Counted from the stretch's first letter, positions 4,818-15,799 are shown. The stretch: 64,000 nucleotides of DNA from an uncultured Acidimicrobiales bacterium (GCA_964484385.1 CAZAFV010000007.1:1328-65327); one strand, 5' to 3'. Translations and numbers: made by a program. The notes: a model not told the origin generated them from the letters alone.

Positions 4818-4985
4818 CGAGGTATCTCACTCGGGCAACTGGGGGCCCTGACCTAGCTCGGTAGCACGCGATCGGTCCCATGGCGATGGCCTTGTGCGCA
4901 CCACCCGTTCGACCCGCTGTCACACGGCCCCGGTACCTTGCGAGTTGTCCCCCGCCCACTACGGGCGAAGTCGCGGGAGGGTGAT

Positions 4986-7900
4986 GTGAGTCCACGAATG
5001 GCCGAACCCGCTCTCAACTCGTTCGTCGCGAGCGCTCTCGGTGATCGCCTCGGCGGTTGGACTGTCTCAGCCGAAGCAACCAAGACCTTGACGAAAGCCG
5101 GGCTTCGGCCCGACATCGTGGTCGACACCGGCGCTGCGCCGGTTGCGATTGAGACCGAGTACTTCCCCGGGCCCCAGGTCGAAGACGACGCAATCGCTCG
5201 CATCGGCGAGGCACTTTCGTCAACTGGGCGGGTGATCGAGGTAGCTGTAGCTGTGCGACTGCCGAGTGTCCTGGGCGAGATCGCCGCGGCGGAAGTTCCG
5301 GCGGCGCTGGACATGAGCAACGACTTGGAATGGTGCGTTTGGATCGAGGGCGCCAATGCCGTGCGCTTTCCCGCATCGGGCTGGCTCCAGGGTGACCTCA
5401 ACGATCTGGCCGGTTTCGTCGAAACGGTCGCCGTGTCGGAACGTCGTATCGCAGCCGCGGCCGACGCTTTTGAAGCCGGCGTTTCGCAGGCAGCTTCAAA
5501 CCTGCGTTCAAGCCTGACGGACCGCAGCGCTCAGTCCGCCCTCGACAAGATCGCCGCCGCGTTGCACCAAGACGACAGCGAGCAAACGACGCTGATGGCC
5601 GTCGCTGTGCTCGCCAATGCGCTGGTGTTTCAGTCGGCGCTCGCCGGGGTGCACGACACGCCCTCGATCGAAGAAATGAGATCGGAAAGTGGCATATTCA
5701 CGGTTGGCGCGGTGCTTGATGCGTGGCGAGAGATCCTCAAGATCAACTACTGGCCTGTGTTCGACATCGCCTCGAGGATCTTGCGGCCCACACCCGAAGG
5801 CCCGGCCCAAGAATTGCTTGCTCAATTGGCCGCTGTTGTGGCCGAGCTGTCCGGTGCTGGCGCAACGACCGTCCAAGACCTTGCCGGCCAGATGTTCGGA
5901 CGATTGATCGCGGACCGCAAGTTCCTCGCGACGTTCTACACCTTGCCCGCTTCAGCTTCGTTGCTTGCGGAACTCGCCGTGAGCCAGCTTGATGCACGCG
6001 TCGACTGGAGCGACCTGCCCAGTGTCGGCCAGCTCAGAGTGGCCGACTTCGCGTGTGGAACGGGCGCCCTCTTGTCGGCGGCATACCGCCGGATTGCCTC
6101 GCGAGTGCGTCGGGCCAACCTCACTGACGGCACCGACACCTCCAAGCGACTGCACGCGGCATTCATGGAAGACATCTTGATCGGCTGCGACATCATGCCC
6201 GCAGCCGTGCATCTGACTGCGAGCATGCTGTCGGCCGCTCATCCGGCATCGCCCTTCGGCGATACGAACATCCACCTGATGCGGTACGGCTATCCGGAAG
6301 GCGACAAGTCGAAGCCCGCCTTCATCGGGTCTCTCGAACTGCTTGGTGACGAAACCGCTCCGTCTCTCTTCGGCACAGGCCGGACGCGCGCTGGAGGCAA
6401 GGGCGACATCGAAGACACAGAATCGGGCAGTGCGGACTTTGTGATCGACGACGCCAGTATCGATCTCGCAATCCAGAACCCGCCCTTCACGCGACCCAAT
6501 GGTCCAGAAGCCGAGAAGTTAGGTGTTCCAATTCCTTCTTTCGCCGGGTTCGACACCGACGATGACGAGCAGCAGGCAATGTCAAAGCGGCTGAAGAGCC
6601 TCTACCGGGGACGGCACGAACCGGCTGCAGAAGGCAATGCGGGGTTGGCCACGAACTTCATCGATCTCGCCGACGCAAAGCTCAGGCCAGGGGGTGTTCT
6701 GGCGCTGGTGCTGCCTGCCACGGTCGTCTCCGGTGACGGCTGGCGCGCCACGCGTCATCTGTTGGCGAGGAAGTACTGCGACATCTCGATCGTGACGCTC
6801 GCGACCGGCACAGACCGCGCTTTCTCGGCGGACACTGGCATGGCTGAAGCGCTCATCATCGCAACGAAGCGCTCGAACGAAGTCTCCGTCGACGAGGGCT
6901 TTGCCGAGGACATCGACTGGGTAAGCCTGACACACCGACCGCACAACCCCGTTGAGGCAGTCGCTATGGCTCGCAGCATGACGCGCACCGCCAAGGGCTC
7001 ACAAGCCTTCGTATCCATTGGTTCGGAAGTCATTGGCTGTCGTATTCGGGCACCGCTGTCCGAGGGTGGCTGTGCGCATGCCGCCGATGCGTCGGTGCCA
7101 GCAACAGCTAGCAAGCTGCGAAGTGGGTTACTGCGGCTGCCGAGAGTGAACGAGGTCGCCGCGCCGATCACCCACCTCGGAGAATTGGGTGAGGCCGGAC
7201 CCCAGAACCGCGTCTTCGACGATGTCCGCATCCGCATCGACAGCAAGACGGGGAAGCCTCGCACCGATGCGAACGGGAATCCCATCCACAACGGGGCCTT
7301 CGATATTTCTCGAACGCTGCCGAAGGGCAAGACAGTCGACTACCCCGCTCTTTGGGCGCACGATGCCGCTTCGGGACGCGAGTCGCGCCTAATCGTCGAA
7401 CCGGATCGGGACCTTCGACCTTGGCCCGAGCATCAGGAGCGCGCCAAGGAGATCTGGCAGACGGCGACGCGTCTCCACTACAACCGAGACTTCCAGTTGA
7501 ACAGTCAGATGCTGGGTGCATCTCTGACACCACAGCGGTGCCTCGGAGGCCGCGCGTGGCCTTCGTTCGTCGTTGATGAAGAGCGATGGGAACAGCCATT
7601 GGCGCTGTGGGCCAACACCATTTTGGGCCTCGTAGGACATTGGTGGATTGGAACGCGACAACAGAACGGTCGGGCCATGTTGAGCATCCGGCTGCTGCCC
7701 GAACTGCCTGCGTTGGACTGCCGCGCCCTCACCTCAGGCCAAACGTCCGCGCTCGAACGGGTATTCACGGAATTCGAGCACCGGCAGTTTCTGCCCGCCA
7801 ACGAGGCATGGCGCGACGCAACTCGTCAGGCTCTGGACGAAGCTGTGCTGTGCGACGTGCTGGGCCTTGACCTCGCTGCAGGCGTCAGCCGAGCCGAGTA

Positions 7901-7988
7901 CTCGGAGTCACTCGATGTGCTGCGTCGAGAGTGGTGCCAGGAGCCGTCCGTCCACGGCAACAAGCCGACAGCCCCTCCGACCGGTTGA
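4986..7988 (+). CDS. large gamma-class N6-adenine DNA methyltransferase with N-terminal nuclease-like region and C-terminal specificity-like domain (type IIG/IIL, MmeI-like layout)
   Basis: FYTLPASASLLAELAV lies upstream of motif I DFACGTG (6045-6065). Motif IV is NPPF (6477-6488), and the post-motif KLRPGGVLALVLP follows. The C-terminal LALWANTILGLVGHWW...LLPELPALD resembles Eco57I/TaqI-type C-terminal domains. An N-terminal PD...IETEY string lies at 5109-5159. A GTG at 4986 sits 5 nt after GGGAGG; the alternative start is ATG 4998. Confidence 0.8.
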   Translation: MSPRMAEPALNSFVASALGDRLGGWTVSAEATKTLTKAGLRPDIVVDTGAAPVAIETEYFPGPQVEDDAIARIGEALSSTGRVIEVAVAVRLPSVLGEIAAAEVPAALDMSNDLEWCVWIEGANAVRFPASGWLQGDLNDLAGFVETVAVSERRIAAAADAFEAGVSQAASNLRSSLTDRSAQSALDKIAAALHQDDSEQTTLMAVAVLANALVFQSALAGVHDTPSIEEMRSESGIFTVGAVLDAWREILKINYWPVFDIASRILRPTPEGPAQELLAQLAAVVAELSGAGATTVQDLAGQMFGRLIADRKFLATFYTLPASASLLAELAVSQLDARVDWSDLPSVGQLRVADFACGTGALLSAAYRRIASRVRRANLTDGTDTSKRLHAAFMEDILIGCDIMPAAVHLTASMLSAAHPASPFGDTNIHLMRYGYPEGDKSKPAFIGSLELLGDETAPSLFGTGRTRAGGKGDIEDTESGSADFVIDDASIDLAIQNPPFTRPNGPEAEKLGVPIPSFAGFDTDDDEQQAMSKRLKSLYRGRHEPAAEGNAGLATNFIDLADAKLRPGGVLALVLPATVVSGDGWRATRHLLARKYCDISIVTLATGTDRAFSADTGMAEALIIATKRSNEVSVDEGFAEDIDWVSLTHRPHNPVEAVAMARSMTRTAKGSQAFVSIGSEVIGCRIRAPLSEGGCAHAADASVPATASKLRSGLLRLPRVNEVAAPITHLGELGEAGPQNRVFDDVRIRIDSKTGKPRTDANGNPIHNGAFDISRTLPKGKTVDYPALWAHDAASGRESRLIVEPDRDLRPWPEHQERAKEIWQTATRLHYNRDFQLNSQMLGASLTPQRCLGGRAWPSFVVDEERWEQPLALWANTILGLVGHWWIGTRQQNGRAMLSIRLLPELPALDCRALTSGQTSALERVFTEFEHRQFLPANEAWRDATRQALDEAVLCDVLGLDLAAGVSRAEYSESLDVLRREWCQEPSVHGNKPTAPPTG

Positions 7989-8009
7989 TCGGCCAGCCTC
8001 GCTGCTTCG

Positions 8010-11000
8010 TCAGGCGCCGGGCTTGGTGACGTCGATGACACGGACTGCGATCTTGCGTGCCTCATCGGCGCTCAAGTTCTCCTCCAGCATCTCCGTCAGT
8101 TCCTGGGGACTGCCTGGTCGGCGACCAGAGGACGGCGGCGGAACGTCCTCGCCCCCGAACCAGAACACCAGGTAGATGCCGTAACCGTCTGTTGCCGGAT
8201 CGGTTGTGTACTGACCGATGAGCTGACGCCGCATCGCATGCCACAAGTCACGGTGCGATTCCCGCTTGATCTCGATTGGCACGTTGAATCCACCGCAGCT
8301 CGCGCGGATGTCTGCCCGTGTGCCAGCCGCGTAGCTGCCTTCAGGCTCGACCTCCAGCTCGCGCAACGATGGATGATTCCTAAGGAGTGTGAGCAGCGAA
8401 TCCCGGCATGCGTTCTCGGGTCTAGGAGCAGTTGGGCGCCCATGTGCGTCTACGTTCCAGTAGGCGCGCCACGGGTTCCCTGCGTCCCCCCGCATCTCAT
8501 CGGCGATGTCATCGAGCCGATCCAGCAGCAGTGCCGCGAGGTCGGCCGCATTCGCCGGAGCACCGCCGCTGAGGGTCCGCTGAACATCGTGGATTGTCGG
8601 ATGGCGATACTCGGCGTCTCGTTGGATTGCGCTCTGTTCCTCCCGCTTCCATCGCAAGAGGTCATGCCATTCCGTCAGATCCGGATGGTGTTCCAAGTGT
8701 CGAAGTGCCTCAGCGGCCTCGTCGTCGGGCATCTGTGCGAGCAGGTGGATCATCGCCCGTATCCGATCTGCCGCATCGATCTCAACTGTGACGAGCCCGT
8801 CGAGGTCAAGCGGTTGAAACGAGCGTCCGAGCGTCTGGATGAGCATCGCGAGCGTTCCCGGGCTCAAGCGCGCGATGAGTTCTGGCCATCGAGACCCGTG
8901 CGCATCAGGGGCCGAATGGAAGAACTCGGCAATGTGCCGGACAGCCGATCGATGACTGCCGACATGCTGGGCGAGTTCGTGGACATAGCGGTCTTCAAAA
9001 GCCAGTGCCGCAGCGGTGAGCCAGCGAGCGCGCTGCGCGACCGTCATGCTCACGAGGTTGAGCTTGCTGTCGATGAGCTCACGAAGGCCAGGTGTTTCAG
9101 GATTCGCCAAGGTGGCCAACAACAGCCGCTCAAGCAGCCGAAGCTGGGCGTTCGACCCGCGAAGGGGGAAAGACGCCAGCAGTTGCAGCGTGACGCCCTG
9201 ATCGCCGCCGAGGGTGTCAAGTTCGTTCAATCCCGGCGGGTGTTCATCGCCGCTTCGGATCGCAGCGGCTGCACATCGGGTCGCCACTTCAGTAACGAGT
9301 GACCGGTTCTCCACAAACCATCGCTCGACCCACGGCGGCAATGACGACATGTCAGTTGGAACACAGAAGACGAGCGCTAGTGCTTGGCGCTTGAGACCAT
9401 CGTCTAGCTGGTCAAGCTGCGCTGGGTCTTCATCGTCGAGCAACCGCAGCCCAACGAGCGTGGGCAGTGCGAGCCATGCATGCTTTGACTCATTGTGCAG
9501 GGTGATTGTCTCGTCAACGCTGGGAAGTTCAGGTCGCCTGACGGACTCGCGGAACGCCTGCAACACGGCCTCGACTAGGTCGGCTTCGCCACCGATGAAC
9601 TCGCTGAGACGGGTCCGCTCGTCAAGTCCGTCATCGCTGTCGGCGTACAGACCCATGTACGCGAGTGCGAGTGCATGCAGGTTCACTGATGAAAAGGTGT
9701 TGTTGCGGAGTTCGCTCTCACCTGAGCGGAGCCCGTCAGCCCATTGCTCTGCGCGGCGCCGCGTCTCGTCGACCCACGTGGCACGACGTTCGTCCCGTTC
9801 CTTGAGCCATTGCTCGACCTTGGGGTCAGGGGACACCGGGGCGAGCAGAGCTTCGACGAGTTCTGTCAGGGGATCGAAGTCGCTGACCGCTCTCCGAAGG
9901 GCATCGGCAGTAAGGCCGTCGTTCACTTCTGGGTTATCGAGTGCCCCGTGCGCAAACCGCACGAGTTCACGCGCCAAATCCAAGTCCGACTCGGCGAGTT
10001 CTGCCGCGCACTCGAGGCACCACCGGCCGAAGTCCGAGGGAAGGCTGCTCCCGTGCAACGCCAGACATCGACCGTGAAACTCAAGGGTCAGCAGATCGTT
10101 GGGGTCGCGAACTCGAAGCCAGCGCAAGAACACTTGCCGCTGGACGTCCGGCCGAGCCTCAAGCCAGTCTCGAACACGCCGGCTGGCTGCGCTTCTCGCC
10201 GGCATGACCTCAGGCTCGCAGTCACCAGTAACGCTGAGCCATGAAAACAGGCGACTCTCATCGATCTCATCGCCCAGTTCGACTAACGCCGTTGCCAAGA
10301 GTTCCACAGCTGCGCGGTCGAAATAGCGTGAGCGGAGAATCGGGAGCACTCGACTGGCGTCGCGGTGTAGAGAATCCAAGAGCTCGCCAGCTTGTGCAGC
10401 GGAAGAGTGTGCCGTCAGTTTCCGATCCCAGAATCCCTCGAAGATCCCAATGATTCGCTTGCGGCTAGGGTGCGCTGCGTATCCCCACACTTCAGCTGGC
10501 TGAATGGCGCCCGGGTACAGCACTTCGAGCAATCTGCCTGCGAGCTGACGATCGGGATCGGAAACTCGGTTCGCCGTGATGTCGTCGAGCAGTTCGCGAA
10601 GACCTCGTTGCGCTTCAGGACCTGCAGACGTGAGGTGAATCTGCGCGTCCAACGCTGCCAGCCGAGCACGCCGTGAATGACCACCGTTACGAACTACGTC
10701 TGAGACGTGCGGAACCAGTTCTCGCACGACATCGAACTGATCCTCGCCCACAACCGCCAGGCACTGGAGCAAGAACTCCGTTACACGCTCGCTCGTGATG
10801 TCTTGAGGACTACCCGCCAGCAGATCTGTGACGGTCTCAAACGTCTCAGCATCGATGATGGAACGAAATGCCCACGCTGTCGTATCGCGGAAGTCCAGGC
10901 GTCGCCCATCGCGCCGCTCACTGCCCAACAGCGGACCCTCCGCTGCGTATGACGCAAGCGCCCGCAGCAGGCGCCGCTTCTGTTCGCCGTTCAACCAACC

Positions 11001-12185
11001 GATATCGCCGTAGAGGCCGATGCCGACAGGGTCGGCGTCAACAAGTCGATCGAGCGCCTCCCGGGAATGCGCCGCGAACCAAGCTGACAAGCCACGCAGC
11101 GACGTCACGACTCGGCCGTCATGTGGACTGGCCATGAGGGCCACAAGCCGCCGGGCCGGTATTCCTTCGCCAACGAGCCGCGCAAGGAAGCGGCCACCGA
11201 GATACTCGGCAATGTGTCGATGCAGAGGAACGAACCTCGAATTGCTTGTGACTGCCGCTGCGTCTGGAACCGCTGAGAACAGCTTCGTCCGCAGGGCATC
11301 CCTCCATCCGCTAAGCCGCCGATCCGGCCCGTCAACTCCGTCGCCTTCGAGGGCGTCGAGCGCTACATAGGCCGGTTGGTCCTCTAGTCGGTTGACGGAA
11401 AAGCCCTCGTTGCCCGACAGCAGTTGAATGGCGCACAGCTCGCCGGCGGCGTCGAGCACTTCCTCCAACGCGCGGGAGGTACTTGCGGAGGCATGCTCGT
11501 CATTTCGTTCCCAAGCCATCTGGCGACAGGCCAAGTCGAAGGTGTCCAGCCGGTTCTTAGGCCACGAACTGCCGCCGTGAACAAAAGCGCGAGCGAGCAA
11601 TTCAAGTGTGAGGGGATTGATGAGCATCGCGCTGATGTCGCCGTGCGGGTCGCCGCTTGTGAAGGCCTGCAAGTCGTACTCGTCAAGGTGTAGCGCCAAC
11701 AGCTCCCGCTGTGCGGCCCCGTCGAGTGGCTCAAGCCTGAACACCGCCACTTCTTCTCCAGGGGTTGCCCTTTCGAGGCTGCGGCGGTCGTTGCTGCCAA
11801 GCCAATCGGCCTCACGGCACGAGATGCGGTACTTCGGCCAGCCAAGCTGATCCAGACGCTTGCGGATTTCATCAAGCGCTGGACGTCCGTCGGCCATGCC
11901 TGCACGGATCTCATCCAAACCGTCTATGAAGATCGTCTTGTCGCGCCACTCGGACCTGACATCGAACGTTACGAAGTCCCGAGCACTGCGTAGCAGTGCC
12001 GCATCGCCGAGTTCTTCGCACTCGTGCCGGAACTCGATCGACTTGCCAGCACCAGCGTCGCCAAGGAGTACGTAGGCGCGTTCCGACCGGAAAGTGCTGA
12101 GTGGAGCTGAACCCACTTCCCGTTGGCCACCTGATTCAACCGCGGCGAGACGGGCACAGGTGCGCTTGACGTACGTCTCGCTCAT
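8010..12185 (-). CDS. NACHT/STAND-type P-loop NTPase with long helical-repeat region and C-terminal PD-(D/E)xK (RecB/Cas4-like) nuclease domain
   Basis: 1,391-aa ORF. Walker A GDAGAGKS lies at 12039-12062. The NACHT-style Walker B IFIDGLDE lies at 11910-11933. About 1,100 aa of Leu/Ala/Arg/Glu-rich helical sequence follow. The C-terminus reads ...ADIRASCGGFNVPIEIKRESH...QLIGQY, giving D1292, E1305-x-K1307 (8265-8273) and a following QxxxY. Confidence 0.75.
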   Translation of the reverse strand: MSETYVKRTCARLAAVESGGQREVGSAPLSTFRSERAYVLLGDAGAGKSIEFRHECEELGDAALLRSARDFVTFDVRSEWRDKTIFIDGLDEIRAGMADGRPALDEIRKRLDQLGWPKYRISCREADWLGSNDRRSLERATPGEEVAVFRLEPLDGAAQRELLALHLDEYDLQAFTSGDPHGDISAMLINPLTLELLARAFVHGGSSWPKNRLDTFDLACRQMAWERNDEHASASTSRALEEVLDAAGELCAIQLLSGNEGFSVNRLEDQPAYVALDALEGDGVDGPDRRLSGWRDALRTKLFSAVPDAAAVTSNSRFVPLHRHIAEYLGGRFLARLVGEGIPARRLVALMASPHDGRVVTSLRGLSAWFAAHSREALDRLVDADPVGIGLYGDIGWLNGEQKRRLLRALASYAAEGPLLGSERRDGRRLDFRDTTAWAFRSIIDAETFETVTDLLAGSPQDITSERVTEFLLQCLAVVGEDQFDVVRELVPHVSDVVRNGGHSRRARLAALDAQIHLTSAGPEAQRGLRELLDDITANRVSDPDRQLAGRLLEVLYPGAIQPAEVWGYAAHPSRKRIIGIFEGFWDRKLTAHSSAAQAGELLDSLHRDASRVLPILRSRYFDRAAVELLATALVELGDEIDESRLFSWLSVTGDCEPEVMPARSAASRRVRDWLEARPDVQRQVFLRWLRVRDPNDLLTLEFHGRCLALHGSSLPSDFGRWCLECAAELAESDLDLARELVRFAHGALDNPEVNDGLTADALRRAVSDFDPLTELVEALLAPVSPDPKVEQWLKERDERRATWVDETRRRAEQWADGLRSGESELRNNTFSSVNLHALALAYMGLYADSDDGLDERTRLSEFIGGEADLVEAVLQAFRESVRRPELPSVDETITLHNESKHAWLALPTLVGLRLLDDEDPAQLDQLDDGLKRQALALVFCVPTDMSSLPPWVERWFVENRSLVTEVATRCAAAAIRSGDEHPPGLNELDTLGGDQGVTLQLLASFPLRGSNAQLRLLERLLLATLANPETPGLRELIDSKLNLVSMTVAQRARWLTAAALAFEDRYVHELAQHVGSHRSAVRHIAEFFHSAPDAHGSRWPELIARLSPGTLAMLIQTLGRSFQPLDLDGLVTVEIDAADRIRAMIHLLAQMPDDEAAEALRHLEHHPDLTEWHDLLRWKREEQSAIQRDAEYRHPTIHDVQRTLSGGAPANAADLAALLLDRLDDIADEMRGDAGNPWRAYWNVDAHGRPTAPRPENACRDSLLTLLRNHPSLRELEVEPEGSYAAGTRADIRASCGGFNVPIEIKRESHRDLWHAMRRQLIGQYTTDPATDGYGIYLVFWFGGEDVPPPSSGRRPGSPQELTEMLEENLSADEARKIAVRVIDVTKPGA

Positions 12186-13462
12186 GGGTTCTCAACCCAC
12201 TCGCTTGCCGGCACGGAGAGGAACTCATCCAGCGAGACACCGCCCTCGCCGACCACGAGGGTCCTCGCTTCGAATCGCTGCCTGAACTCATCAAGCCCAG
12301 GCAGCGATTCCCGTACCGCGCCCGTCTTGACCTCGATTCCGAGCAATTTCGGACCGCGTTGCAGAACAAAGTCAACTTCGACCTCGGATCGACCGTGGCG
12401 CTCCCTCCAGTACTTGACCTCTCCGCTGGACGACATGGTGTTGATGAGGTGTGCTCCAACAGCGCTCTCGACGAGGCGACCCCAGAAGGTGCGATCTGCG
12501 CGCGCCTCGTCGAACTGGTACCCCCAGACCATCGACATCAGCGCTGTGTTCAGCACGTTCAGCTTCGGGGTCGAAGCCTTGGCCGAGACTGCGCGCTCGG
12601 TGTGCTTGGACAGGCCCGTCAGCAAACCTGCGTGCGACAACAACTGCAGGTACCGCGTCAGAGTGGTGGTGTTGCCGGCATCTTGGAGCTGTCCGAGCAT
12701 CTTGTTGTAGGCAAGCACCTGACCCGAGTAGCGAACGCCCACATCGAAGAGGCGTCGCAACAGCGCTGGCTTGTCGACCCTCGTCATGGCCAGCACATCA
12801 CGCTCGATGTTCGGCTCGACCAGCACTCTTCGGACGTGTTGATGCCACTCGTCGTGCGCCTCCAGTTTCTCCGTGGCGCCGGGGTAACCGCCGTAGAACA
12901 CGTACTCGTCCAAGCTGAAGCCGAACGCCGCCGCCATCTCGGTGAAGGACCAATGAGGAGAGACGATCATCTCGAATCGGCCCATGAGGCTTTCGTTCAG
13001 GCCCTCCTGGATTTGCAACGGTGCCGAGCCGAGGACGACCACGTGCAGCGGACAGCCCGATATGCGGTCGTCATCCCAGAGGCCTTTCACGACGGTTGAC
13101 CAGTTCGGCAGCCTTTGGATCTCGTCCAACACCAACACGCAGCCATCAGACGATTTCTTCGCCCGTTCACGGCATTGCTTCCACACTTCGACCAGCCATT
13201 GAGCGTCACGCGGCGCGGACGGCAGCCGGGCTTCGCGTCCAGCAATCGCGCCTGCGTCGAACGGCCCCAAGTCGTCGGACGATTCGTCGACTCCACCCGG
13301 TTCGAACGCGACCATGCGCCAGCCATGCCGAATTGTCTGTAGAGCCTGCAGAACGGCAGTCGTCTTGCCGGACTGTCGGGGCCCGAAAACCGCGATCAGC
13401 CGCTCGGGCGGCTCGTTGAGCCGTTCTACGATCGTTGTGACCAGTGGTCGTCGATACCGCAC
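12182..13462 (-). CDS. AAA-type ATPase with C-terminal DUF4143-like (restriction-endonuclease-fold) domain
   Basis: 426-aa ORF with a GTG start. Walker A GPRQSGKTT lies at 13358-13384 and Walker B is VLVLDEIQ. The C-terminal EVEVDFVLQ...LLGIEVKTG is a D...ExK pattern. The stop TGA overlaps the ATG of the NACHT gene (ATGA at 12182-12185). Confidence 0.8.
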   Translation of the reverse strand: MRYRRPLVTTIVERLNEPPERLIAVFGPRQSGKTTAVLQALQTIRHGWRMVAFEPGGVDESSDDLGPFDAGAIAGREARLPSAPRDAQWLVEVWKQCRERAKKSSDGCVLVLDEIQRLPNWSTVVKGLWDDDRISGCPLHVVVLGSAPLQIQEGLNESLMGRFEMIVSPHWSFTEMAAAFGFSLDEYVFYGGYPGATEKLEAHDEWHQHVRRVLVEPNIERDVLAMTRVDKPALLRRLFDVGVRYSGQVLAYNKMLGQLQDAGNTTTLTRYLQLLSHAGLLTGLSKHTERAVSAKASTPKLNVLNTALMSMVWGYQFDEARADRTFWGRLVESAVGAHLINTMSSSGEVKYWRERHGRSEVEVDFVLQRGPKLLGIEVKTGAVRESLPGLDEFRQRFEARTLVVGEGGVSLDEFLSVPASEWVENP

Positions 13463-13486
13463 TACGCAGACAGCTTATCGGTTCTT

Positions 13487-13522
13487 GTAACGCTACTGAG
13501 TAATTTTACTCAATAGCGTTAC
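13487..13522. repeat. 36-bp AT-rich near-perfect palindrome (IR1) 25 bp upstream of the ATPase-NACHT operon
   Basis: GTAACGCTACTGAGTAA-TT-TTACTCAATAGCGTTAC, with 16 of 17 arm positions complementary. It lies in a roughly 43 % GC intergenic stretch. Confidence 0.85.
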
Positions 13523-13578
13523 CGGAAGCATGGAGCTTGCATCTGGATCACATCCAAGCCAATACACCCATCGGTTCC

Positions 13579-13610
13579 AACGCTATTGAGCAATTTTGCT
13601 CAGTAGCTGT
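13579..13610. repeat. 32-bp AT-rich palindrome (IR2), a diverged copy of IR1
   Basis: AACGCTATTGAGCAA-TT-TTGCTCAGTAGCTGT, with 12 of 15 arm positions complementary. 26 of 32 nt are identical to the IR1 core. The centres are 90 bp apart. It abuts and overlaps the stop codon of the molybdoenzyme gene. Confidence 0.8.
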
Positions 13611-15799
13611 CAAGGCCGCTCGCAGGCAGGCTGCGGATCGTCCGCAACCGCGGAGAGGTTGACGGGGATTCCGTTCAGGATGCTCATTCCTGCCAGCCGC
13701 TCGATGTCTTGGCCCGACGCGCTGGCGAGGATGTTGCTGTTGACGCCGCCGGCCGCGTTGGCACGGCGCCAACCCCCGTCATGACCCCAGCCGTGTGGCA
13801 GGGCCACCGTGCCTGGGCCTACCTCGTCGCTGACGGCCACCGATACCCGGACAGTTCCGGATGCGGACGTGATGTCGACATCGCTGCCGCCGGCGAGGCC
13901 GAGCCGATGAGCGTCGCTGGGATTGACGCGGGCAGTCAGGCACCTGCCTTCGGGCATGAGCCGGGGCGCGTTGTGCATCCACGTGTTGTGTGAGCGAAGT
14001 TCTCGCATGCCGATGAGCCGGAACCCGAAGCGGTCATCGTCGGTGTGCTCCCCCAGTGCGGCGAGTTCGCCGAGCACCTCGGGGGCAGCCAGGGGAATCT
14101 TCCCGTCCGGCGTCGCCAGCCTTGCGTCGATCTCGCCCGTGGGGAGTTCGTCCAGCAGCTTCTTGCCGTGCGGGAAGTCGCGTGTGAGCTTGTCGAACGA
14201 GACCCCGCGCCGGCGCAGACCGAATCGGTCGCCCGCTTTGCCAGTGCGCAGCAACAGGTCGAGCAGCCGTCGCGGCGTGATGTTCCAGCCCAGCTTGGCC
14301 AGCCATCGAAGCGGGCGCAGCACATGGGCGCCGCCGCGGCCCATGCGCTTGGCGATCTCGTTCAGAATCTGCCACTCCTGGCGCACCCCGGCAGGCGGCT
14401 CGATCACCGCCTCGGTGGCCCAGATCGCTGGGCGCAACATGTTCGCAAGCGTGGTCACGGGAACGTCGTCGCGTTCATAGAAGTGGGTCACCGGCAGCAC
14501 GTAATGGCAGTGCTTGTTGGTCTCGTTGATGTAGAGGTCGAGCGAGAAGCTCAGCTCGAGCTGTTCGAGTGCTTCCTCGAGCCAGGTGCCGCCTCCGGCG
14601 CTGCTGAGCACCGGATTGCCTCCGACGAGTGCGAGTGCCTTGATCTGGCCCTCGCCCGGTGTGACGATGTCGACCGCCAAGTCCGTCGACGGGAGCAGGC
14701 CGAATACGTCAGGGTGCTGGTTGACCCGAGTTCGCACCTTGCCGTAGGTATCGGTTCCGGCTTTGCGGGCCAGTTCAGGCAGGTCGATCGCCGCCCAGCC
14801 GAACAGCAGACCACCCGCCCTGTCGAAGTTGCCGGTGAGCAGAACCACGATGTCCTGCAGGACGTTGTTGAGCGTGCCGAAACGCTGGGTGCAGGTGCCA
14901 GTGCGGCCATAGACGACTCCGCTGTCCGCCGATGCAAAGTCCCGCGCGAGCTGCTCGATGACGGCGGCAGGAATTCCCGAGCGCGACGCGCACCGCTGAA
15001 TATCGAACGGCGCGATGACGTCGGCAAGCGTGCTGAGACCACCGACATGGCGATCGATGAAGGAATGGTTGACCAGGTCCTTGTCGATCAGAGTCCGGAT
15101 GATGCCGAGCAGCAAGAAGGCGTCGCTGCCGGGCCGCACGGAGATGTGCTCGTAGCGCTGTGCCGTCTCCGTACGGCGGGGATCCACAACGACGACCCGC
15201 CCGCCGCGCTCGATGACAGCGTCGAGCGCCTCCCGCAGGCGAGCCTCCGTGACCAATGAGCCATGCGAGACCAGTGGGTTCGCGCCGATGATGACGGCGA
15301 AGTGCGTGCGCCACAGGTCCGGCTTGGGCGCGATGGCGACCGACCCGTACAGCAGCGCGTTGGCCGCCATGCGTGCCGACGCGTCCTCGGAGTTGATGCC
15401 GTACCGCCACCTGATGCCCAGCACTTCCTGAAAGCCGGCCAGTGCCATGGACGTGGCGAAGCTGAACAACGGCGGGTTGCCGCAGAAGGTGGCGAGTGCG
15501 TCGGGGCTGCTGTCGGTACGGATACGGCCAAGGCGCTGGGCGATGTCGTCGAGCGCCTCGTCCCACGACACGGGTTCGAAGACGCCGGGGTCGCCCACCC
15601 GCTTCATCGGCTGAGTGACCCGATCGGGGTCGTACACAATCTCGACTGCGCCCGCCGCCTTCGTGCACACATATCCCTGAGAATGAACATGATCGGCATC
15701 GCCACGGACGCTCACGAGCCGTCCGTCTGAGATCGTCGCGACGAGACCGCACTGCGGCTCGCAGATGCGGCAGTGGGTGTATGCGGTCTTGGTTGCCAT
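13610..15799 (-). CDS. molybdopterin (bis-MGD) oxidoreductase family protein, formate-dehydrogenase-like single subunit
   Basis: 729-aa ORF. The N-terminal Fe-S cluster motif is HCRICEPQCGL...GYVCTKA. The molybdopterin-binding and C-terminal dinucleotide-binding layout is present (...VALPHGWGH...). Confidence 0.85.
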   Translation of the reverse strand: MATKTAYTHCRICEPQCGLVATISDGRLVSVRGDADHVHSQGYVCTKAAGAVEIVYDPDRVTQPMKRVGDPGVFEPVSWDEALDDIAQRLGRIRTDSSPDALATFCGNPPLFSFATSMALAGFQEVLGIRWRYGINSEDASARMAANALLYGSVAIAPKPDLWRTHFAVIIGANPLVSHGSLVTEARLREALDAVIERGGRVVVVDPRRTETAQRYEHISVRPGSDAFLLLGIIRTLIDKDLVNHSFIDRHVGGLSTLADVIAPFDIQRCASRSGIPAAVIEQLARDFASADSGVVYGRTGTCTQRFGTLNNVLQDIVVLLTGNFDRAGGLLFGWAAIDLPELARKAGTDTYGKVRTRVNQHPDVFGLLPSTDLAVDIVTPGEGQIKALALVGGNPVLSSAGGGTWLEEALEQLELSFSLDLYINETNKHCHYVLPVTHFYERDDVPVTTLANMLRPAIWATEAVIEPPAGVRQEWQILNEIAKRMGRGGAHVLRPLRWLAKLGWNITPRRLLDLLLRTGKAGDRFGLRRRGVSFDKLTRDFPHGKKLLDELPTGEIDARLATPDGKIPLAAPEVLGELAALGEHTDDDRFGFRLIGMRELRSHNTWMHNAPRLMPEGRCLTARVNPSDAHRLGLAGGSDVDITSASGTVRVSVAVSDEVGPGTVALPHGWGHDGGWRRANAAGGVNSNILASASGQDIERLAGMSILNGIPVNLSAVADDPQPACERP

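Follow-up and report, generated by a model that had tools for sequence, protein, structure and literature searches.

A diverged Erebus/Avs10-family NACHT protein with a predicted C-terminal nuclease, its coupled ATPase gene, and a conserved palindrome in an uncultured Acidimicrobiales bacterium

Does a large bacterial NACHT protein that carries its presumed nuclease at the C-terminal end represent a new kind of defence protein acting alone, or does it belong to a known family and work together with a second protein? This question is raised by a gene in a 64,000-nucleotide stretch of DNA from an uncultured Acidimicrobiales bacterium (GCA_964484385.1, CAZAFV010000007.1:1328-65327), which is referred to here, at its full length, as the window. 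An earlier description of the gene, made without database searches and called the original prediction below, presented its product as a single protein of distinct and undescribed architecture, in which an N-terminal NACHT NTPase is followed by a long helical region and a nuclease. The explanation that best joins the observations reported in this study, and that we regard as probable, is that the product is a diverged NACHT-sensor-nuclease of the Erebus/Avs10 family, which is coupled as one unit with an upstream gene for an ATPase-nuclease, with a palindrome ahead of both genes as the operator.

Translation of the open reading frame (ORF) at 8010-12185 confirmed most of what the original prediction had read from it. 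The Walker A motif GDAGAGKS begins at residue 42 and includes K48 (residues 42-49, encoded at 12039-12062 on the minus strand), the Walker B motif IFIDGLDE occupies residues 85-92 (11910-11933, minus strand), and the motif D1292-x12-E1305-x-K1307 is present in the C-terminal stretch. More than 1000 homologues of the NACHT protein were found, and the survey of their architecture that had been proposed showed that the 120 best-scoring ones, with identities of 42-66%, are all full length. In these 120 proteins, the Walker A residues G42, G45, G47, and K48, the D88-G-L-D-E92 segment, and the C-terminal residues E1282, D1292, E1305, K1307, Q1321, and Y1326 show at least 95% conservation; the same level is reached by the four Walker A residues among 83 operon-linked homologues. 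The conservation of D88-E92 agrees with the earlier assignment of IFIDGLDE as a NACHT-type Walker B motif. Inclusion in the alignment of plasmid relatives from proteobacteria, with an identity as low as 24-26%, leaves the Walker A and B residues at least 90% conserved and the six C-terminal residues strictly invariant. Since the Walker and PD-(D/E)xK motifs are kept across homologues in this way, they are not chance occurrences.

The family relationship is indicated by the NCBIfam model NF058535, "NACHT domain-containing antiphage protein EruA", which matches the protein with 800.7 bits (expectation value, E = 3.5e-240). The alignment is a single collinear stretch that pairs residues 22-1387 with positions 11-1318 of the 1318-position profile, and because the EruA profile extends to the last residues, the nuclease is part of the standard EruA architecture. 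Close relatives of the protein score 773-876 bits on this model, and the plasmid relatives from Pantoea, Bradyrhizobium, and Vibrio score 776, 1034.8, and 777 bits, respectively; the Pantoea relative has the anti-phage gene Ppl on one side and an Abi gene on the other. Because these plasmid relatives fall at 776-1035 bits on the same model, the profile comparison identifies the protein as a diverged member of the wider Erebus (EruA)/Avs10/bNACHT64 family that lies below the NCBI equivalog threshold.

A 2026 Nature paper groups Erebus, Hypnos, and bNACHT64 as Avs10 and reports the phage major capsid protein as its activator; when effector domains were mutated or deleted, cell death was lost in every Avs family tested, Avs10 among them (PMC13581612; preprint PMC12803255). 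The preprint of Kibby et al. describes some bacterial NACHT effectors at the extreme C-terminus (10.1101/2022.07.19.500537). The view that the order NTPase-sensor-nuclease is distinct and undescribed therefore has to be given up: the protein aligns over its full length, nuclease included, with EruA, so that this layout is already known as the defining layout of a validated antiphage family, and the claim of novelty adds nothing. The protein shares with Erebus/EruA the order of the parts, that is, a NACHT module without an N-terminal effector, a long sensor, and the same C-terminal domain, and its catalytic residues recur in the plasmid relatives, among them one whose score exceeds the EruA cutoff. 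It differs from the stand-alone relatives in that it is coupled to an ATPase gene with AAA_14 and DUF4143 domains and to a palindrome, both of which those relatives lack, and in its score below the cutoff. The HyoA (Hypnos) model NF058534 gives a much weaker match (128 bits against a cutoff of 1200; residues 322-1388 on positions 361-1429 of 1430), in which homology runs from the winged-helix region to the C-terminal end, whereas the N-terminal NTPase part is outside the best-aligned stretch. Avs1-4, Avs7, and bNACHT25 likewise combine a sensor, an oligomerising NTPase, and a DNase of the PD-(D/E)xK superfamily, but their Cap4 or Mrr nucleases are N-terminal, whereas the nuclease considered here is C-terminal and has no profile match to Cap4 or Mrr, its nearest folds being SfsA, Can2, R2 endonuclease, McrC, and Hjc.

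Two fragments, residues 1-460 and residues 1150-1391, were modelled with AlphaFold2 on the 120-sequence alignment. The model of residues 1-460 (predicted local distance difference test, pLDDT, 85; predicted template-modelling score, pTM, 0.85) shows a nucleotide-binding domain, a helical domain, and a winged helix, in a fold that resembles that of animal NLR proteins. The best PDB match obtained with Foldseek is NLRC4 (E = 2.5e-11, template-modelling score = 0.58); NOD2, NLRP3, NLRP9, and NAIP5 follow with E-values of up to 1e-6, the bacterial Avs4 is a weaker match (E = 8e-6), and 100 PDB matches have E-values of 1e-3 or better. Together with the NCBIfam family name, the NLRC4 match supports the NACHT/STAND identity that had been proposed for the N-terminal domain. 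Sequence and profile searches of the PDB with the protein gave only noise, and Pfam and PADLOC scans of it gave no meaningful match. In the model, residues 9-28 form two short strands that run directly into the P-loop strand (residues 37-42), which leaves no room for an N-terminal effector and bears out the original prediction on this point. Residues R124 (in ISCREADW) and H322, R323, and E327 (in PLHRHIAEY) are invariant in the homologues and are located where the respective motifs would be expected, and the NPL motif at residues 190-192 is also invariant. From their sequence context, R124 is a probable sensor-1 arginine, and H322 may be the winged-helix histidine.

In the model of residues 1150-1391 (pLDDT 88.5), a helical stretch precedes an alpha-beta-beta-beta-alpha-beta core. 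The second strand (144-148 in fragment numbering) has D1292 at its start, the third (151-159) carries E1305 and K1307 of the ExK motif, the helix that comes next (168-177) contains Q1321 and Y1326, and E1257 is in the first helix; the codons of the catalytic candidates E1282, D1292, E1305, and K1307 fall within 8265-8342 on the minus strand. Nearly all of the top PDB fold matches are PD-(D/E)xK proteins, including SfsA, the nuclease domains of Can2 and Can1, R2 endonuclease, PspGI, and McrC, and further PD-(D/E)xK proteins among the Foldseek matches listed are Hjc, Bax1, Cdn1, LmuA, PaqCI, and MUS81. In BFVD, a collection of predicted viral structures, the best E-value for this model is 2.2e-4; most of the top entries by score are unnamed or zinc-finger proteins of giant viruses, and endonucleases and restriction endonucleases are frequent among the named ones. 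We accept, from the model and its matches together with the invariant catalytic set, that the C-terminal domain has a restriction-endonuclease-like PD-(D/E)xK fold. The model core, the fold matches, weak as their E-values are, and the invariant residues thus support the C-terminal nuclease of the original prediction, but not the subtype assigned to it. The supposed QxxxY motif after the ExK strand is in fact QLIGQY, that is, Q1321-x4-Y1326, and neither RecB nor AddB nor Cas4 occurs among the 50 PDB fold matches listed. With this spacing, no such fold match listed, and no Pfam match, the RecB/Cas4 assignment was rejected. There is also no Cas4-like cysteine cluster, because C1260 is the only conserved cysteine in residues 1150-1391.

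Could this domain instead be catalytically silent and serve DNA binding or oligomerisation, with the partner nuclease or NTP depletion by the NACHT module as the effector? The weak E-values of the fold matches speak for this alternative, as does the conserved D-ExK motif that the partner ATPase has of its own, and no Pfam or PADLOC nuclease family was matched by the whole protein or by its C-terminal 196 residues. However, E1282, D1292, E1305, K1307, Q1321, and Y1326 remain invariant down to 24% identity, which would be unusual for an inactivated nuclease, and the nuclease domain is the best conserved part of the NACHT protein (54% identity). The loss of cell death on effector mutation or deletion in the tested Avs families, including Avs10, points in the same direction, and we consider a silent domain quite improbable.

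The C-terminal module is found in other settings as well. A stand-alone protein of 289 residues on an Azospirillum plasmid (L170, 4923-5792) is 38.5% identical to residues 1135-1389, which comprise the helical lead-in and the nuclease, and a P-loop protein of 1329 residues on a Rhodococcus plasmid (L171, 1512-5501), which adjoins another NACHT gene, shares the nuclease domain only. Since both plasmid proteins share it, the module seems, as far as these sequences go, to be mobile between proteins.

Between the two modelled modules lies the least conserved part of the protein, with 32-36% identity against 47-54% at the two ends, and it is taken as the sensor because a sensor would be expected to vary most. 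Published Avs10 sensors are TPR-like and bind the capsid protein (PMC13581612; PMC12803255). Of the helical region of about 1,100 residues in the original prediction, the helical character is borne out at the modelled edges (residues 323-457 and 1154-1232), whereas the length is not: because the NACHT module fills residues 1 to about 460 and the nuclease starts near residue 1240, the region between them has about 780 residues (approximately 461-1239).

The original prediction treated the NACHT gene as a single gene, and this view is incomplete because it missed a translationally coupled ATPase gene directly upstream. The stop codon TGA of this gene is contained in the ATGA at the NACHT start, as read directly, which results in an overlap of 4 nucleotides. 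The partner of 426 residues has Pfam matches to AAA_14 (E = 1.5e-17) and DUF4143 (E = 6e-23), both above the Pfam cutoffs, and matches the PADLOC model of PDC-S01 (PDLC04791) over its full length (residues 1-423, E = 6.5e-147). Its Walker A residues (G27..G32-K33-T34) and Walker B residues (D113-E114) are conserved, and so is a nuclease motif of E362, D364, and E377-x-K379 (D-x12-ExK). RecA matches of the partner in a PDB search were rejected as artefacts of the P-loop only. In one NCBI record and one ENA record, the partner is given as 377 instead of 426 residues; the start is probably mis-called there, because the shorter form would lack residues 27-34 and, with them, the conserved Walker A motif. 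In a published survey, PDC-S01 appears as an ATPase with a fused domain of the PD-(D/E)xK superfamily and is listed as a single-gene candidate without experimental validation; the same survey ranks it fourth in frequency among the defence candidates of all prokaryotes. Thus, the partner resembles PDC-S01 over the full length of its model and differs from the catalogued form, a single gene, in sharing an operon with the gene for an NLR-like nuclease. When the NACHT protein family and the partner family were compared profile against profile, no relationship was indicated (probability 1%), so the two nucleases are not recent duplicates. A literature search for EruB or HyoB yielded nothing relevant.

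The coupling of the two genes is widely conserved. In all five gene-called homologue loci, whose flanks differ, the ATPase gene ends 4 nucleotides inside the NACHT gene. Surveys of species-representative genomes were seeded reciprocally with the NACHT protein and with the ATPase alignment: the ATPase gene is directly upstream on the same strand in 78 of 80 NACHT-seeded loci, and the NACHT gene is directly downstream in 76 of 78 ATPase-seeded loci. The overlap is exactly 4 nucleotides in 68 of the 83 pairs and 1 nucleotide in 5. The pairwise identities of the two proteins correlate (r = 0.82), and the ATPase is better conserved than the NACHT protein (mean identity 61% versus 42%). These patterns argue strongly, as genomic evidence, that the ATPase is a functional partner and not a mere neighbour.

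Two independent single-gene defence systems that hitch-hike in defence islands, with the NACHT protein acting alone like Erebus/Avs10, would provide another explanation. PDC-S01 is indeed catalogued as a single-gene candidate and is very common alone, stand-alone EruA-like genes occur on plasmids, and the paired clade itself includes two solitary NACHT genes. The neighbours within an island are normally reshuffled, however, whereas the gene order, the strand, and the 4-nucleotide ATGA overlap are kept in the 68 of 83 pairs mentioned above, across more than 10 phyla. Reciprocal co-occurrence of about 97% and the correlated divergence of the two proteins are also difficult to reconcile with hitch-hiking, and the differing flanks of the loci mean that the two genes move together. 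Hitch-hiking of two independent systems is therefore unlikely.

The AT-rich spacer of 147 nucleotides upstream of the ATPase gene contains two copies of a palindrome with the core TGAGYAAAATTRCTCA, of which none is expected by chance in the window. The proximal copy is 34 nucleotides ahead of the ATPase start codon, the distal copy begins 3 nucleotides past the stop codon of a molybdopterin oxidoreductase gene, and both are also present in three identical metagenome contigs (L001-L003). At least 13 of the 16 core positions are matched within 180 nucleotides of the ATPase start in 109-114 of 137 non-redundant loci, and coding-sequence controls never exceeded 11 of 16. The consensus is an inverted repeat of approximately 34 bp, with halves TTACGCTATTGAGTAAA and TTTACTCAATAGCGTAA, in which the inner core hardly varies and changes in the outer arms come in pairs. 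The site ends 21-22 nucleotides before the start codon in 70 loci and 32-35 nucleotides before it in a smaller group, mostly Acidimicrobiia, to which the window belongs. In most loci, the left arm is TTGAGT, and a TAnnnT hexamer is found 17 nucleotides further on, 6-8 nucleotides before the ATG; the palindrome may therefore lie between the -35 and -10 elements of a promoter with a very short or absent leader, which makes it a putative operator that overlaps the promoter. An RNA-hairpin reading was tried and dropped: the arm mismatches, 83 of the G-T and 59 of the A-C type, gave no clear sign. An Rfam scan of 7800-13800 gave no match, and terminator-like sites in the window were at chance level.

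The palindrome follows the ATPase and not the NACHT gene, as it is perfect upstream of solitary ATPase genes and absent upstream of solitary or plasmid NACHT genes. A scan of the genome collection for the palindrome at the DNA level alone found at least 120 stretches, in still more phyla; 95 of 123 sites adjoin an ORF of the ATPase family, 14 are too close to the locus end, and 14 are internal with no ORF of this family nearby. For 66 of the palindrome-seeded ATPase genes, the locus leaves enough room downstream; a NACHT homologue comes next in 23 of them and not in the other 43. The latter number also counts in favour of two independent systems. Since the palindrome tracks the ATPase and these 43 genes have no NACHT neighbour, the broader unit consists of the palindrome and the ATPase, and the NACHT-coupled form is a sub-lineage of it.

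The site is kept across many host phyla, and for this reason it is most likely the cassette itself that encodes the factor recognising it. The most likely candidate binder is the ATPase partner, and autoregulation through the palindrome is the preferred interpretation of the sequence pattern. Defence operons controlled by BrxR- or CapW-type regulators are repressed through an upstream inverted repeat. The operon described here is similar in that the palindrome lies just upstream of the first gene and is conserved with the operon, but it has no separate regulator gene and no match to a WYL or helix-turn-helix family.

Table 1. Features of the operon and its surroundings, in window coordinates
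Feature	Position	Strand	Basis or remark
NACHT-gene ORF	8010-12185	minus	ORF call and translation; ATG start, 1391 codons; second (distal) gene in the operon
NACHT NTPase module, residues 1-460	10806-12185	minus	AlphaFold2 model, Foldseek, and conserved residues
Variable middle region, residues ~461-1239, presumed helical sensor	8469-10805	minus	Low conservation; collinear with the EruA profile
Predicted PD-(D/E)xK nuclease domain, residues ~1240-1391	8013-8468	minus	AlphaFold2 model, Foldseek, and invariant residues
Partner gene, 426 residues, AAA_14 ATPase and DUF4143	12182-13462	minus	Pfam, PADLOC, and direct reading of the ATGA overlap
Proximal 34-bp inverted repeat, one mismatch, core TGAGTAAAATTACTCA at 13497-13512	13488-13521	minus	Direct reading; operator-like
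Distal palindrome copy, core TGAGCAAAATTGCTCA at 13587-13602	13582-13607	minus	Direct reading
1016-residue ORF	4938-7988	plus	Convergent with the NACHT gene, 21-nucleotide gap; weak methyltransferase matches

A number of observations weigh against the joint explanation of family, partner, and operator. As regards the family, 800.7 bits is less than the curated NF058535 equivalog cutoff of 1000, and the identity to the stand-alone proteobacterial relatives is only 24-26%. The PDB fold matches of the nuclease domain are weak, with a best E-value of 1.1e-2 and none at or below 1e-3, at probabilities of up to 0.96. As regards the partner, the stand-alone plasmid NACHT relatives have no ATPase neighbour, the tested Erebus/Avs10 proteins act as single genes, and there are rare cases of a NACHT gene (L021 and L059) or an ATPase gene (L143 and L151) on its own; because of these stand-alone relatives and solitary genes, the partner may not be strictly required. 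As regards the operator, the palindrome copy of the window itself fits a -10 element poorly, and a sigma-70 scan found no promoter in the intergenic region of the window. Profile searches found no DNA-binding domain in the partner, and a putative winged-helix segment of it gave only DUF4143 in Pfam.

By analogy with the characterised Avs proteins, the coupled system may work as follows. The middle sensor would bind a conserved phage protein, which for the tested Avs10 is the HK97-fold major capsid protein. Binding would free the NACHT module from an ADP-bound closed state, upon which the protein would oligomerise, and the clustered C-terminal nuclease domains would cut DNA, thereby stopping the phage and possibly killing the cell. 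The ATPase partner and the NACHT protein would act in this as one unit. Capsid sensing is established for the tested Avs10 proteins only, and the low identity to the proteobacterial relatives means that the trigger specificity cannot be transferred from them. A more far-reaching proposal is that the operon constitutes an obligate, self-regulated, and undescribed two-protein system, in which the PDC-S01-type ATPase binds the palindrome and controls the NLR-like sensor or assembles with the NACHT protein as a second sensor or effector; we put this forward tentatively, as a possibility that is more doubtful than the joint explanation.

The operon is located in a region of reduced guanine-cytosine content (0.62 over 6-14 kb, compared with approximately 0.68 in the flanks). 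The flanking genes encode ECH, CMD, dodecin, and CoA-transferase proteins on one side and glyoxalase, alpha/beta-hydrolase, and amidohydrolase proteins on the other, and the same genes surround the operon in Ca. Poriferisodalis genomes, with the insertion between the CoA-transferase and glyoxalase genes. The cargo between these shared flanks is the two-gene operon only in one relative, and the operon with a KAP NTPase and a 1001-residue protein without a Pfam match in another (L004). In the window, it comprises the operon, the molybdopterin oxidoreductase gene (13610-15799), which the relatives do not have, and the convergent methyltransferase-like gene of 1016 residues. The product of the latter gives weak matches to Eco57I-like (E = 0.007), PADLOC MTase_II (E = 5e-9), and MAD2 (E = 1.5e-8) models and has a PD...ExE-like stretch near its N-terminus; either an orphan methylase or a restriction-modification enzyme in fused form may be behind these matches. 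The locus looks like a small variable islet or insertion hotspot, and the genes that were checked to its left and right in the window include no integrase or transposase.

This setting bears on whether the operon is antiviral at all. It might instead regulate a mobile element, serve as a selfish module for addiction or maintenance, or supply a signalling NTPase with a housekeeping role, as in NLR regulators of the AfsR type. Non-immune bacterial NLR-like proteins are known from the literature, and the operon spreads horizontally as a compact cassette, both of which would suit such a role. The full-length homology to an experimentally validated antiphage family, on the other hand, and an output that is a nuclease effector and not a DNA-binding domain point towards defence. 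So does the position in a low-GC variable islet beside a methyltransferase-like gene, with the KAP NTPase in the relative and without an integrase or transposase among the checked neighbours, and a non-antiviral role is accordingly very improbable.

The hosts of the operon include Acidimicrobiia, Chloroflexota, Acidobacteriota, Latescibacterota, Gemmatimonadota, Nitrospinota, Spirochaetia, Bacteroidota, Verrucomicrobiota, and Alpha- and Gammaproteobacteria, the last with Azonexus, Dechloromonas, and Gallionella. The paired operon occurs chiefly in metagenome-assembled genomes, which represent more than 10 phyla, and also in freshwater and wastewater genera of the Betaproteobacteria type such as these three, a distribution that suggests wide horizontal spread. 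Many of the host names are related to sponges (e.g., Ca. Poriferisodalis and Ca. Spongiisociaceae), and the names hint at a link between the operon and sponges. Some genomes carry two copies of the ATPase-NACHT operon, namely OY760734.1 (L054 and L079), OZ242219.1 (L105 and L114), and the Nitrospinota bin RHO1_bin_79 (L106 and L115); in two cases, the copies are 30-50 kb apart on the same chromosome. Multiple copies are consistent with duplication followed by diversification of the sensors.

What may be of importance in this locus is the conserved coupling of an Erebus-type NACHT protein to a PDC-S01-type ATPase-nuclease and to a palindromic cis element. If the two genes do form an obligate, self-regulated two-protein system, a functional context would be available for the first time for PDC-S01, a very common family, and there would be an example of an NLR-like receptor that depends on a dedicated partner ATPase. 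The occurrence of the operon across symbiont genomes of many phyla, several of them with more than one copy, points to horizontal spread and diversification of the sensor.

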